DNA of 62,859 nt, counting the filler, from Rhabdomonas costata (taxonomy: Eukaryota): NCBI GenBank assembly GCA_019059605.1. It is 18 parts of 18 records of this genome, joined end to end, with 100 filler letters (N's around TTAATTAATTAA, not from the genome) between each part and the next. Parts side by side here need not be neighbours in the genome. Positions count along the whole stretch, not along the records: positions 21,011 to 24,409 come from JAHMHO010000898.1; 17 more parts are not named here. The stretch is one strand, 5' to 3'. The notes beneath the pieces were generated by a model. The model saw only the letters and a program-made list of their open reading frames with translations, did not search any database and was not told where the DNA came from. Below, piece after piece: positions 1 to 24,227 of this stretch. Every line of letters begins with the position of its first letter. Within the stretch, counting starts at the first letter, position 1. A program made the translations under genes and the position numbers.

Positions 1-3000
1 GGTGTTGTGTGGGGTGACCTTCCTGACCTTGGCCTGTTCCCCATGGACGTGCCCTGCAGACCCCCAGCGGTATCTTTGGCTTCTTTTTTTTGCAGTGCAA
101 AGTGTGGGAAATCAAATTCTCTCGTCACTGCTGCGCGGCGATCGTGCGCCGTGTTTACCTCTGAACTTTTGAGCTCTTACTGCCCGGTTCTCAGGATGTG
201 GGAGCGTTTGTGGGCTGCTTCCTTTGGTGGGACACACCCACCAATTCCGAGCTGGAGCCTGGCCCCTGGGCAGAGGAGGTGGAGCCCTATCTTCTCTGCC
301 ACGGGTCGCATAGCCTGCGCTACCTTGTCGCTGTGCGAGGCTGCGAGGTGTCATTGTGGGACGTGCCCCTGCAGAGAAAGCTCGCAACCTTTCCGTGCAC
401 CGCCAGGTCACCTCCTTGGCCTGCTCTCTGCCAGCCTGTCAATTACTGAGCCCCCTTCCATCCCTCCTTTATGCTTTCAAGCCCGAAAACACCCCCAGTG
501 CTGCGCTTTCCTTTCAGAATTTTTTTTCGGTCGTTGCAGCATAATTTCTTGTTCCGATATAGAGGTCATCTTGGAGTTGCTTTCAAATGCCCCTCACCCT
601 GAACTTTTATGATTTGCAGGACCTTGAACAAGTCGAACTTGCTGTATGAACGGATGCCTATTTTGACGAGACACATGTCTGTGCCCCCCCCCCCGGTTCC
701 TTTCCCTTCTGATTTTCCTCCGCAGATTTTTTTCCCGCTCTCAATTCTTCTCGAAAAAGGCGCGAGCTAGTTTCCTGCAGCCTCACGGTTACCCCGGCGA
801 GCTCCGCTCCCCCTGAACTCACCCTGGCATGGTGGGGTGGCCCCTCCGTGGGCCTCCGGATCGCCTTCACCCCTCCAAGGAAGGGTTCGTGCGTTTTCTT
901 TTTCAGTTCTTTCTTCTTTTTCTTTTCAGTGCTTTTAGCGTTTTTGGAAACCAGGTTCAGTGAGTCCTGCCTCTCCTGCTGTGCAGGTTTGACGCTATGA
1001 CGCTGTGACGCTATGCTGTTGGATGAGTTGTGTGAAATTGGAAAGATCATCCCGATTCCCTCTTTTTACTTTTTCACTTCCATTTGGTTTTATTTTCTAT
1101 TGCTTTTGCTTTGATTGGCTTGGACACTATAAAACGGCGGTTTCACGATCAGTCTGCTTCACCATATCTGAAAAATCTGATGAATCTTATTACTTTCTGT
1201 GGTTGTTCAGAGGTTTTGTTTGTATGCTTAATGGTATTTCTTTTGACGGCAGAAGCCATGACTCGGACCTTTGGAGTCCCTTTCCATGGCCGGGAGGCAT
1301 ACTGCATTCGCTGGGTCACCGCCGCGGAGCTGCGTTCCATCACCAGGCCCCATGACCTCCTGGTATCCGTCTCCGAGGATACTGACCTGCGAGTTCTGCG
1401 GTACATCTCATCAAATCACAGCCTGGTGGGGTATGCGCTCCTCCATGCAGCTTCGCTTTCCCTCTCTCTATCTGCGCGGCTTCTGTGATGATGTGAGGCG
1501 TCGCTCTGGGGGGTTGTGAGCAATGTTTGTGAGTCCTTGCTTCAAACATTCTTTGCGATGCGACAGGAAGGTTGGCAGCGACCTGTATTGAATTGCTGAT
1601 TCGTCCCAATTTCGGTGCTATTGTACGTTAGGCATCTGTGGAACTGGAATCCAGGGGAACCGCTAAAATACAATGAACCTGACATTCATTGCCCAACCTT
1701 CTTGTGTCCTTCTTGTCCAATGGCGCGGGGATGTGCTCATCTGCATCACCTTGGTGTCGCAGGGGGCCGATGCTTCACGGTGGGCACAGCAGTGGAGTCC
1801 GCTGTGCTCGAGTGTGCCCCTTTCCCGTGGAGGAAACCGGCTCAGTTTCCTCGTCTTCCTTCGTGGTCTTGGCAGGAGGAGGTGAGGAGCAGCTCAGCGT
1901 CTGGCGGGTGTCCATTTCCTCCTTGGCACACTGCCTGCTGGCGAAGTGGAGCCTCGGTCATCACTTTGGGCATACATTTTCCAGCTGTTCTTCCGTCTTT
2001 TTGGAGCGCAACACGCAGCGCCAGGGCGAAGCTGACGTTACCGTCCCTGTCGCGCTTCCGCCTTGGCGCCAGCGCTCCCTTAAGCGGGACAGAACCCGGG
2101 CGCAGTTCAGGATTTTAGCGTTGGTCGTGCTTCTCGAGGCTCCGCTGCAGATACGGGAGCCAGCTTTGCCGGTTTCGTCGCGGTACATTGTGATAGTGAG
2201 CTCTTCAGACTGCCTGCTGAAGGTGTTTCGGCTGTGCTGTGAGGAGAAGCCGTCCGACATGGGGTCTGTACCGAGCTCCTCAATAGTTGGAGTTCGTCCA
2301 ACTTTTCCATCCCTGACGCCGATTGCCGTGGCTCGCTCCTGTTCTGGTCCGGTACTTGCGCTGGAACCCTTGATGTGCCCAGCAGAAACACAGCTTTGTT
2401 CGCATACAAAGCTACCGCCTCTGTGCGGTGGGTGCACTACGGGAGTTTGTGTGGTGTGGGACTTTGGTGTCTTCCCTGGCACCGCCATGGATGTGAACAC
2501 TGTCCCCGGGCCAGTGCTGGGATGGGGGTGCCACCAGAATGGCGTGAACACCCTTGCGGTTGTGGCCGTTTCCGGTGGTTCCCAAGACCCCGGTGGTTCC
2601 GAAGACGGGTTTCAGTTTTGGGCCATTGCCACCGGAGGAGATGATCAGGCCGTTCGGGTCTCTATTATCAAGACTCCTGTGCAGGGTGCAGGACCCAGTG
2701 AAACGGGAACGTCCCACAAGGTACTGGCTGATGCGAGGGCGGCCCTTATACACTGTGCTGCAGTTCGAAGTGTTCATATTGAGGGTGGGGGGTTGCTGCT
2801 GTCCTTGGCGGGGGACCAGAAGCTGGTGAGGTATCGCTGGAGGTGGTCATCCGAGGAGGGAGCTGGGGTTGTGCACGTCGAGGTTCTGGAGTGGATTTTG
2901 ACAGATGTGCAGAGCCCAGAGGGAATGGAGGTTCACCCGGTGGCCCCTGATGCTGAGGCCGAAGAAGCAAAAGGAAAGGCAAAAACAAGAGAAAGGGCTT

Positions 3001-3152
3001 TGACCAATCCTGACGCTGTGAAGCACAAGGAGGTGATGACAATGAATGACTGCTGTTGTAAATGTGCTCAAGCGGTTCGACTTGTAGCGGTGGTGGGATG
3101 TGGTGTGCAAGTCGTACGGATCGTGCGAACGTCCAAGACTGCAAGAGAATGA
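1..3152 (+). CDS. WDR6: WD40-repeat protein WDR6/Trm734-like (tRNA 2'-O-methyltransferase partner), 5'-partial, multi-exon
   Basis: Approximate exons 1-69, 195-406, 620-643, 781-885, 1253-1399, 1763-3152 (possible extra intron near 1908-2111), GT-AG. Motifs FHGREAYCI, LLVSVSEDTDLRV, GHSSGVRC, GGGEEQLSVW, HQNGVNTL, IATGGDDQAV and LAGDQKL..W match the C-terminal propellers of WDR6/Trm734. Confidence 0.8.
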
Positions 3153-3400: not shown

Positions 3401-3500
3401 NNNNNNNNNNNNNNNNNNNNNNNNNNNNNNNNNNNNNNNNNNNNTTAATTAATTAANNNNNNNNNNNNNNNNNNNNNNNNNNNNNNNNNNNNNNNNNNNN
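3401..3500. other. Artificial contig linker (N-run, TTAATTAATTAA, N-run); first of 17
   Basis: The same 100-nt spacer with stops in all six frames recurs about every 3.5 kb, starting near 6902, 10403, 13909, 17409, 20911, 24410, 27914, 31409, 34909, 38409, 41904, 45398, 48893, 52382, 55870 and 59369. Confidence 0.99.
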
Positions 3501-6100: not shown

Positions 6101-7278
6101 TTTCGCGCAGAACAACGGGAGATCTGAGGAATGACAAATTGAGAGGCTCTTGTCATGCAATGTACCGCCAACAAACGTCACTGGTGCATTGCAAACAAAT
6201 GAGATACAGACAAAAACTGAACAAAGAAAATGAAGGATTACAACAATGGTGGGAGCTGGTGGAACTTTCCGAAAAGGCAGCGCGAGCTCATCAGGAACAG
6301 CACAGCCATCCCGCGCTCGAACGCCATGGGAAAACCCGAAGGGAGCCACGGAAGGGGACATGGGGAAGCACACTGGAAAGAGTGGGAGCGGGAGAACGCA
6401 CGTGTGCCAAGACAAAAACTAGAGTTGCATGTGCAGGCCCCGGGGCCAAACAGTGGAAAAGTATGAAACACAAGCACCAAAACGGGTATGCAGGAAAAAA
6501 TGGTGTCACATACGGGCAGGGAAAAGTGACCCACTTCTCGCCACCCTAGGACGAAGTGTGTGGAGATTAAAACTCATGGGACGCGGGCGATGTGGTCGCT
6601 GGCACTACACCCGAGCATGCCCTCTGCATCAGACAGCACTCGCTCGCCCATTGCGCCTATTGAAAAAATTGAAAAACTGAAAGCTTACTACAAGAGCACA
6701 AACCCAGTGCTCCACACGTGCACGTGCAGCAAAGGCAAAGCACATTTGACGCTCAGCGGGGCAGTGGTGATGCCGGACACCTGGGAAGTAGCAGCTCCGG
6801 CACACCACGGAAATGCACCAGCGACTTTGACTCTGATTACCCTGTGCACTTCTCCTCCATGCCCAAAATTCCAACTCACACAGTGATAAAGAAAAAAAAC
6901 ANNNNNNNNNNNNNNNNNNNNNNNNNNNNNNNNNNNNNNNNNNNNTTAATTAATTAANNNNNNNNNNNNNNNNNNNNNNNNNNNNNNNNNNNNNNNNNNN
7001 NTTCCCAATCTGAAGTAAATCTTTGGAGGGGCGTCGTCTTGCAGTTGACAACAGAGGTTCCCGTGAACTAATGCATGTTGTGGGTTGTGGGAGCAGAGAT
7101 GCACAACGTGGTTCGTGATCGTAGATCGCCATTCGTTCTTGTGATTGGCAATCCTTCTGGCTTTCTCGCTGCAACCCCGAAAATGCAGGCTTTGCTCAAC
7201 ACTATGGGCAATCCATCTGAGAAACAGTTCAAAGGTTGTAAGGCTCGACAACGGGATATGAAAGGGTGAAGGGGCTAC

Positions 7279-21418: not shown

Positions 21419-24227
21419 CTGGCCCTGGCGGTCCAAATCAACCACGACAAAGTCCACAATCGGACCCAAGTTGGTGAAGCTGTCGACGGGCTCCACTGTG
21501 GGGGGCCCACCTGGGGCAGAGCACAAATAGAAAGCGCATGCGTAGGAAACGACATGGTCTCAGGCAGGGAAGACATTGACTGCGCTGTCTAAGATGCAAG
21601 ACAATGATCTTTAAAATAAATCAAAAAGGGTGACTGTGTCCCCCTACAAAAAAGCTAAATATGTCTGTTAGCGGGGGAGTGGGGGGACGGGCAGCAGATT
21701 TGATTATGGCCATGTAACAGTCACTTACTCTCGTGGGCAAGGGTGGGATACCCATTCAGGACAACGTCCCAGTGTTGGGCATAGGGAGGAGTTTCTTTTG
21801 GGCGGTTTCCTCGGGCAGGCGGAGGGTCCCTGCCTGTTCTGTGGTGAGCCGCATGCTGAAAGCAGTGCTATGGGACCTTCTGCGCAAGCTTACCGGGGAA
21901 CCAAGCAGTGATGATGTGGGGTCGGAGCAAAAGCCACTCCCGGAGCCACACACCTGTGTCGGGGTGGGTCAGCCGAAGAAGCTGGGAGTCGGTGAAACAG
22001 CCCCCGACGAAGAGAAGCCCACTGCCCAGGTAGCACAGGCAGGACGGGATGACAGTCTGCAGACCAAGGGAAGCCAATTCAGGGCGAAGACGAGTTGAGT
22101 CAGGAGTATTAGGCCACCAACTCTGCCTTTGTTGGTTATCTGCGGGGAAATTTTATAGGAATGCGATCATTTAATGGCGCGGGTCTCGTTACAAGTGAGA
22201 ATAACAGCTGACGCGATAATTCTGCGAAAAACGGCCACTAGGTGAGATGTAATGACGCTTAAAACCCGTCTTAAGGTCCGGAAAATGCCTGAAATTTGCA
22301 CGTTCACTCGCCAACACGCGACGAAAATATGCCATAATACCGCCTTTTCCTGGTACGCGCGGATTCCTGTACCAACAGCCAGACTGTTGATTTCCTCACC
22401 AGACTTCTTGACCAGGAACATCGCCTGTCTGGCTGTTGGTACAGGAATCCGCGCGTACCAGGAAAATATGCCATAATACCGCCTTTTCCTGGTACGCGCG
22501 GATTCCTGTACCAACAGCCAGACTGTTGATTTCCTCACCAGACTTCTTGACCAGGAACATCGCCTGTCAGCTGAAAAAAACGTCCTTTAGTCCTCCTTAA
22601 GTGTACAGCCAAAAAAGGGTTGAAATGGCATGGCGCTGGTAAAGCACATCCGAATGGCACAGGAACGAGCTTCCGGAGGACACGTCTGGAAGGATTCTGA
22701 AGGAACCTCTGCAATGGTGGTGGTCTGCAAACTGACAGAGGCGTCCACTAGCTCCAAGGTCAGCAGGAAGAGCCGACCCAGCTCGTCGCCAAGAAGGAAC
22801 CTGCGGTGATAGCAGGGCGATGGGCGATATGCGAAAAACCAAGCTCACCATAATATCTGCTCCAGGTTGCAACGTCAGCGTGTGGTAGTTCAGTGTGCAG
22901 CATAATAAATAGCCGGAAGGGTGTACCAAGTGCCAGCCTTGTATGCACACATCTTGGTTTCGGTCTCGGTTGGTCGGTTCACGCGCGTGAAGTGCCATGA
23001 GAGGAAAAAATTATAGAAAAGTGAAAGAGAAAGATTGCAATGCAACAACCTTTGGGGACGCCAAAAATCGGAACCCATCAAGGTCGAGGGACAGAAAGCA
23101 TACCGGTGGGAATCCACGGCACAGCTGGCACGGATTTGGGCGGAGGTGTCGGCGCCAGAGCGCGTCCTCCAGCGCGTGGAACGGGTGCTGGAGCCGCTGT
23201 GGTAGGTCACCAACTCCTCCCCCACAATCAGAAGCCCTCCACAGGGAAGCGTGACCTGAAAAAACCCCAAGTGAGAATGTTAACTTTTGGAGTCAAGTTT
23301 CTGCACAGCGCTCCGACGGGTTTGCTCACTTAAGAAAGTACAAGACGGTGCACACTCAACAGTGAGTGACTGAATATTTTAGATACAGTCAAAATTCACA
23401 AAATTCACACTAGGAGCACACAGATAGATGACCCAAAGTACTGAGAATAAAACAAAAAAAAGCAACCGTCCGAACAGAATCATTCATGACCACCGTGCAA
23501 CAGGACCAAAAACAGGTAATTTTCAGTCACGGTCATGATGGTAACCCGCCCTACTGATGAAACCGACGGACCAGGAAGCTGTCAATGTCATATCCAAAAG
23601 AACAAAGCCGCGTGGTTCCAAGCGCGCACCGGCAAAAGCATGTTCGCAGTGCTCTCCACGTTGCTCTGCGAGAAGGGTCCGTCCAGCAGGTCCTTCTCCT
23701 CCACAGCAACGATGTAAGTGTTGGGGTGGCTGCAAAGGGACCATGGGTGGGCGCGCGGACGAGTTCAGTGAACTACCACTAAGAATTTGAAGGGGCGATC
23801 TCCTGAACAACCATAGAAAGCCCATATACAAGAAAGGAGGCGAGGTGCGACATGAAATGAGAGAATATTGGTAGGACAGTTCCCTAACAGGGCCGTTGGA
23901 AACCGGCCCACGCAGGCTGTTAGCCACGGGTGCTCGCGAGAGGTACCTTCGACTCCGACGCCCAGCGTTCCGCATTCGGCAACCTTCCTTCTGCCCTACA
24001 TGTGTGTAAGTGTGCTGTTGACGTGCCGGTTTCGCTTGCTGTCCTCAAAGAGCACAGCGATGATGTGGGGCCCCGAGGAAGCGCCCGAGGAGGACGAGGA
24101 TGAGGAGGAGGACGGCGCCCCGGGGGCCTCGAAGGCAGAGGTGGAGGACGCGCCCGAGGGGGTGTAGGCGTAGCCCCCAGACGCAAGCTTGACGTAGCAC
24201 ATGTCAATCAGCCGCAGCTCTTCAACT
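21419..24227 (-). CDS. DDB1: DNA damage-binding protein 1, internal fragment, 6 exons
   Basis: Exons encode RVEELRLIDMCYV..IAVLFED..RH; TYIVAVEEKDLLDGPFSQSNVESTANMLLP; VTLPCGGLLIVGEELVTY; RFLLGDELGRLFLL; TVIPSCLCYLGSGLLFVG..DSQLLRL; and SFTNLGPIVDFVVVDLDRQGQ, all colinear with DDB1. Confidence 0.95.
22323..22568. repeat. Direct-inverted-direct duplication inside a DDB1 intron
   Basis: 107-bp exact direct repeat (22323-22429 and 22462-22568) bridged by a 40-bp inverted copy (22427-22466 is the reverse complement of 22345-22384). Confidence 0.95.

Follow-up and report, generated by a model that had tools for sequence, protein, structure and literature searches.

A decayed exon copy in a DDB1 gene of Rhabdomonas costata and the probable origin of its intron by internal tandem duplication

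The DDB1 locus and its first interruption

We analysed a 62,859-nt stretch of DNA from the euglenid Rhabdomonas costata (GenBank assembly GCA_019059605.1), referred to below as the window, in which the piece derived from record JAHMHO010000898.1 carries part of a gene for DDB1. On the minus strand the coding sequence of this gene is interrupted by 297 nt whose two ends repeat each other, and it is this interruption, its origin and its removal that concern us here. The window is made up of 18 pieces of ~3.39–3.41 kb joined by N44-TTAATTAATTAA-N44 linkers (3401–3500, 6902–7001, and so on); adjacent pieces may not be genomic neighbours, and features that appear to cross a linker should not be trusted.

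To identify the gene we relied on protein comparison. A protein search with the translation of exon 1 (24226–24017, minus strand) returned one protein alone among 361 candidates, EP00906_Rhabdomonas_costata_P037101 (RCo052151, 511 amino acids, here P0001), which matched the whole query at 97% identity. P0001 belongs to a protein set that was predicted from the R. costata transcriptome and not from the genome (PMC8219788). A Pfam search of P0001 gave PF10433 at 2.4e-60 and PF23726 at 1.1e-15, and comparison with the DDB1 chains in the PDB gave 3e-109, with the human motif RHVKTY aligned at the site of the interruption. Judged by these similarities, P0001 and the matching exons of the window are DDB1, a member of the RSE1/DDB1/CPSF1 beta-propeller family. 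By tblastn, P0001 is encoded in six exons, all on the minus strand and all within the one piece, with no further DDB1 exons elsewhere in the window and no match anywhere in it for residues 1–158 or those beyond ~408. About 247 of the 249 exon-encoded residues agree with P0001, and outside the junction discussed below the agreement is complete, exon 1 being identical to residues 160–227. Introns 2–5 are all GT-AG, with G at position –1 and CAG at the 3′ end.

At the interruption itself, the 5′ side reads CGG CAC GTC AAC AGC ACA CTT ACA before running into an in-frame TAG (23998–23996), and the 3′ side reads TTTGCAG/C CAC CCC AAC ACT TAC A (a slash marks a splice border throughout). An earlier note on this DNA had described these borders, with their imperfect duplication of the coding sequence, and had listed three competing ways to splice across them; the borders are present as described and we could reproduce all three solutions. 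A GC-AG intron from 24026 to 23730 yields RHPNTY, a GT-AG intron from 23999 to 23730 (270 nt) adds 10 residues, and six equivalent registers inside the repeated motif CAACA, each removing 297 nt and none having GT-AG or GC-AG ends, yield RHVNTY. The human chain has RHVKTY at this site, and of 150 aligned DDB1 representatives 65 have V and 98 have K at the respective positions. Borders other than GT-AG or GC-AG are needed only if RHVNTY is taken to be the required product, as an in-frame GC-AG pair is present at 24026/23730.

A decayed copy of exon 2 within the interruption

The repetition at the borders extends further than the earlier note saw. At its start the intron carries 122 nt (24025–23904) that constitute a decayed, full-length copy of exon 2 (23728–23630), and a GT follows the upstream copy (23903–23902) just as it follows exon 2, both copies ending GCCG/GT. 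Aligned end to end, 24025–23902 and 23728–23628 give 75 matches, 21 mismatches and 33 gap columns. The score of this global alignment (124 nt against 101 nt) is 16.5, a value that none of 3000 real pieces of 124 nt taken from the window as the null reached (mean –9.5, sd 5.1, maximum 10.5). Taken in parts, the first 42 nt of the intron align to the start of exon 2 with a score of 12, reached by 0 of 1000 shuffles and 11 of 3000 real window pieces, and the score of the next, collinear block of 104 nt is reached by 10 of 1000 shuffles and 14 of 3000 real pieces. The same exon-copy test applied to the other four DDB1 introns was negative, with scores that were reached by 353, 365, 100 and 310 of 500 shuffles.

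Within the two copies lie the CAACA motif, an exact 9-nt direct repeat, ACACTTACA, with a spacing of 292 nt, and a third collinear pair of 15 nt that is 80% identical (24000–23986 and 23705–23691). The upstream copy, hereafter the pseudo-exon, continues in frame from exon 1 and is then broken by the TAG; it also carries a 5-nt insertion and further insertions and deletions (indels). From CAC to CAC the spacing is 297 nt, which is at once the length of the intron and the distance between the copies. This equality of intron length and repeat period, together with the copy of exon 2, supports an origin by internal tandem duplication within DDB1, and on the sequence we consider such an origin very probable. 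That exon 1 runs straight on into the upstream copy indirectly supports an ancestral state without the intron.

The earlier note had left duplication or insertion as two routes by which an intron might have been gained here. Duplication is borne out by the first third of the intron, which copies exon 2 in full, donor included; a mobile-element insertion finds no such support, as the window holds no second copy of the intron and terminal inverted repeats are absent, and we rejected a mobile-element origin on these grounds. A search for other copies, which had been proposed as a check, returned none in the 61 kb of window sequence searched: the best non-self blastn match was 18 nt long with E = 0.053, although 61 kb makes this a weak test of copy number. 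The repeat search found no inverted repeats at the intron borders. A hidden RNA gene in the intron was likewise rejected, the only Rfam match being at chance level and below threshold.

Two further repeats were observed in this region. A perfect 9-bp inverted repeat (24033–24025 and 23907–23899, minus strand) brings together the end of exon 1 plus the GC donor and the old donor of the pseudo-exon, and its pairing could loop out the dead exon copy; we made no use of it, since by a rough estimate about one such pair is expected by chance in 450 nt and since it lies outside the minimum-energy fold. A 14-nt direct repeat of 86% identity (24066–24053 and 23715–23702, minus strand, spacing 351 nt) falls on the codons for IIAV in exon 1 and IVAV in exon 2, and may be due to chance or be a trace of the repeated blade structure.

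Removal of the interruption

The features that characterise a U2-type GC-AG intron, namely a GC donor, an AG acceptor, a preserved frame and a pyrimidine tract, are all found in the 297-nt intron. Its donor has G at –1, as do the gene's four GT donors, and G at +5, the only prominent position in the GC-AG introns of Euglena gracilis (PMC11170887). Its acceptor is conventional and follows a C-rich tract of the kind typical of conventional Euglena introns (PMC11170887). GC-AG introns are common in R. costata, for which GCAG or CTGC occurs 634 times in the supplementary tables against 9461 occurrences of GTAG or CTAC (PMC8219788), and E. gracilis has 659 GC-AG against 11,527 GT-AG introns (PMC11170887). 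By comparison, a transcript-based screen of R. costata yielded only seven manually accepted nonconventional candidates (PMC8219788), and DDB1 does not figure in that screen's list of 26 annotated non-GT/GC-AG candidates. P0001 is in register with excision of 297 nt and lacks the 10-residue insert.

From these observations we infer, as follows, how the intron arose and which donor it uses. Exons 1 and 2 would originally have been one exon, of which the final 99 nt, together with flanking intron, were duplicated in tandem. The upstream copy would have remained joined to exon 1 and then decayed, acquiring the 5-nt insertion, the other indels, ~22% mismatches and the in-frame TAG. A working mRNA would then have to omit exactly one 297-nt period, made up of the upstream copy and the spacer that follows it, and the spliceosome would most likely do so by joining the GC donor that opens the upstream copy and preserves the frame (CG/GCACGT, 24026) to the acceptor at 23730, an ordinary C-rich tract and CAG directly before the downstream copy. 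As joins between any homologous points of the two copies remove one period and restore the frame, several solutions seem to compete; the duplicated exon-like ends and the competing solutions would thus both be by-products of the tandem duplication. We put the probability of the duplication origin and removal as the GC-AG intron 24026–23730, taken together, at about 0.5.

Several results weigh against this reading. The remainder of the intron (about 23905–23731) aligned to intron 2 with a score of 9.5, below the shuffle mean of 13.1 and reached by 993 of 1000 shuffles, meaning that whatever was duplicated besides the exon is no longer visible; such a loss of similarity beyond the exon copy would be expected if both copies drift freely. 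The GC donor has a competitor in the GT donor 27 nt downstream (23999), and GT donors are ~15 times commoner than GC donors. The product RHPNTY places P where none of the 150 representatives has P (V 65, I 40, L 33, F 7, M 3, A 1, gap 1) and N where a single one has N (K 98, R 27). Finally, P0001 has neither P-N nor V-N, the pairs that the genome offers (23725–23720 and 24022–24017), and instead reads L-K at residues 228–229 (RHLKTY). This pair accounts for the only differences in ~249 residues, and the two lie side by side exactly at the junction. An exhaustive search, within the ranges covered, for a single donor-acceptor pair giving RHLKTY found 0 solutions, and a back-translated LKTY pattern had 0 matches in the window, which thus holds no micro-exon or alternative exon for LKTY. 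The mRNA that is expressed may therefore stem from a different haplotype or gene copy; as the simplest idea for L-K, we suspect a second one with other bases at 23724 and 23720.

Carried further, this suspicion becomes an explanation of its own, in which the window carries a degenerating allele or paralogue that is not expressed, the RHLKTY mRNA stemming from another haplotype or copy with a different junction region. We regard this as unlikely overall, though as the most probable of the rivals: no excision of window DNA yields the observed residues, L-K is the norm of the DDB1 family while P-N and V-N are both unusual, and the published R. costata assembly is incomplete, with 43.5% of transcriptome reads mapped (PMC8219788). 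On the other hand the remaining exons are identical to P0001 in protein and their GT-AG introns are intact, where a pseudogene would be expected to be damaged elsewhere too, over the 3.4 kb for which the gene is available. This explanation is also silent on how the window copy is spliced, and is compatible with any of the other readings. A conventional GT-AG intron from 23999 to 23730, which would leave 10 extra residues in the first beta-propeller, is in our view very unlikely, even though 23999 is the sole in-frame GT donor, has G at +5 (GTAGG) and belongs to what is by far the commonest class in R. costata; its terminal-10-nt chimera folds at –5.2 kcal/mol, a figure not known to matter for conventional introns. 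The transcript-derived P0001 has no insert at the site, nor, scattered upstream gaps aside, has any of 40 representatives inspected among the 150 aligned. Moreover the base at –1 is T and not G as in the gene's four verified donors, and the added residues would be the dead start of the pseudo-exon.

The earlier note had also raised the possibility of a repeat-bounded, non-canonical intron of the euglenozoan kind, that is, one excised without the spliceosome inside CAACA to give RHVNTY. Euglenid nonconventional introns are defined by non-canonical borders, by pairing of their ends and, in Euglena, by a sequence signature (PMC12501133, PMC11170887), and the interruption resembles them (PMC12501133; PMC8219788 Table S6) in its euglenid host, in a junction that can slide through a direct repeat at the borders, and in a CAG at +4 to +6 in one register. 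Short direct repeats are usual at Euglena intron borders and flank 84.4% of Euglena agilis introns (PMC12501133), the valine of RHVNTY is the commonest residue at its site, and the register that starts at 24020 (CAA CAG) fits N3-CDG, the 5′ half of a Euglena signature whose 3′ half is CH'G-N5-6/R and which 61.2% of E. agilis nonconventional introns carry (PMC12501133). The likeness ends at the remaining features of the class. Folding of the intron ends, one of the checks proposed, showed pairing no better than that of shuffled ends, the terminal 25- and 40-nt duplex energies in all six registers being reached by 85–212 of 300 shuffles. For the terminal-10-nt chimera, a test taken from PMC11170887, energies were 0.0 to –1.7 kcal/mol, with 0.0 in four of six registers, where Euglena nonconventional introns mostly fall between –10 and –2 and ~3% score zero (PMC11170887). 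The fold of the whole intron was no better than that of shuffles (z = +1.13), and the 3′ half of the signature (CTG, 5–6 nt, purine at the exon start) is absent in all six registers.

Nor does the interruption fit the pattern found in R. costata itself, whose seven candidates begin with GC, precede an exon with an initial G, end in CC in five cases, and have long complementary stretches near their ends (PMC8219788 Table S6). No single register combines these features: only register 5 starts with GC (GCACAC), its 3′ end being AACA/C, and CC ends are confined to registers 0 and 1, which begin with CA and AA, with complementarity absent. With an ordinary acceptor at the 3′ end, direct repeats already explained by the duplication, L-K and not V-N in P0001, and DDB1 missing from the published candidate list, a nonconventional intron of the known type appears decidedly improbable here, if a shade less so than the GT-AG intron. 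Removal might still take place at the duplicated segments, at CAACA or elsewhere between the copies, with neither GT/GC-AG nor paired ends. We hold this to be just as improbable as the 10-residue insert; if true, it would be a new form of euglenid nonconventional excision, directed by direct repeats, and imprecise or allele-specific joining could then explain L-K in the transcript-derived protein.

Comparison with other introns and further observations

Among described routes of intron gain, the widely cited AGGT-duplication model (PMC4974935, where a case in a potato RdRp gene is also reported) comes close to the tandem duplication proposed here, in that the duplication spans an exon-intron boundary, the donor derives from formerly exonic sequence, and the mRNA is restored by removing exactly one period. 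It differs in that the DDB1 donor would be GC and not GT, with no AGGT, and in that a whole upstream exon copy (122 nt), not a small segment, has become intronic; the DDB1 duplication is also old (78% identity, many indels), its intronic part being unrecognisable. Introners and other transposon-born introns with target-site duplications (PMC9860276) similarly have direct repeats that flank the stretch, one copy of which stays exonic. Here, by contrast, the repeat comprises ~100–120 nt of exon and not a short target-site duplication, terminal inverted repeats are absent, and there is no second copy in 61 kb. In its GC donor, G at +5, C-rich tract and AG acceptor the interruption is like the conventional GC-AG introns of euglenids (E. 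gracilis, PMC11170887; R. costata, PMC8219788), a class that makes up about 1 in fifteen to twenty conventional introns; it differs from them in that the use of its GC donor is deduced from the sequence and in that its product would contain the unusual Pro-Asn. From the nonconventional euglenid introns it is set apart by unpaired ends, the lacking 3′ motif, a normal acceptor and no fit to the GC...CC/G pattern.

Few introns still show in their sequence how they were born. Here the dead exon copy, its old donor and a geometry of one period can all still be seen, in a lineage whose intron origins are debated and whose nonconventional introns are usually ascribed to mobile elements. The locus also holds a warning for work on euglenids, namely that direct repeats at the borders and a better-looking protein do not by themselves prove a nonconventional intron, and that tests of pairing and of motifs are needed. 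The clash of two residues between genome and transcript at the junction hints, in addition, at a second haplotype or copy in the organism. The coordinates of all features are collected in Table 1.

Table 1. Features of the DDB1 piece, with positions counted along the window
Feature	Start	End	Strand	Basis or remark
Piece carrying the DDB1 part, 3399 nt	21011	24409	.	Flanked by N44-TTAATTAATTAA-N44 linkers
DDB1 exon 1 of the piece	24027	24227	-	Follows CAG acceptor 24230–24228; use of the GC donor would put its end at 24027
Intron in the GC-AG reading, 297 nt	23730	24026	-	CG/GCACGT donor, TTTGCAG/C acceptor; in frame; RHPNTY; length equals repeat period
Pseudo-exon (decayed exon 2 copy)	23904	24025	-	Contiguous with exon 1; donor-like GT at 23903–23902; global alignment to exon 2 plus GT
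5′ copy of CAACA	24016	24020	-	With an intron start at 24020, CAG falls at +4 to +6
5′ copy of ACACTTACA	24005	24013	-	Repeat search, family D4
Alternative in-frame GT donor	23998	23999	-	Context AT/GTAGGG; +10 residues; splice enumeration; no such insert in P0001
In-frame TAG met on reading exon 1 into the pseudo-exon	23996	23998	-	Sequence reading
C-rich pyrimidine tract and CAG acceptor	23730	23758	-	Sequence reading; other four introns also end in CAG
DDB1 exon 2, 100 nt	23630	23729	-	Identical to P0001 residues 230–259; end set by exact spliced match
3′ copy of CAACA, within exon 2	23719	23723	-	Sequence reading
3′ copy of ACACTTACA, within exon 2	23713	23721	-	Repeat search, family D4
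Intron 2, GT-AG, 374 nt	23256	23629	-	Exact spliced match to P0001
Intron 3, GT-AG, 303 nt	22801	23103	-	Exact spliced match to P0001
Intron 4, GT-AG, 650 nt	22057	22706	-	Exact spliced match to P0001
Intron 5, GT-AG, 443 nt	21511	21953	-	Exact spliced match to P0001

For a comparison of the intron across relatives, a metagenome scan gave three loci at 37–40% identity, which are too distant for the purpose. A DDB1 fragment from the single-cell transcriptome of another euglenid, Dinema validum (EP00994_Dinema_validum_P003899, here P0099), is 60% identical to P0001; over its residues 200–226 it departs from the family sequence at most a few residues away from the intron site and ends 19 residues later. 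This break could reflect intron retention at or close to that site, and the protein alone cannot be interpreted.

Exon 1 encodes a low-complexity insert rich in Ser, Ala and Gly (24180–24070, minus strand; P0001 residues ~171–213) that human DDB1 does not have, and the alignment of P0001 to solved DDB1 is interrupted between residues 170 and 216. At the place of this insert the Dinema fragment has a shorter run of Ser. Elsewhere in the window, an open frame of 489 codons lies on the plus strand at 1683–3152, to which no protein of 268–856 residues in a large collection matched at E ≤ 1e-10.

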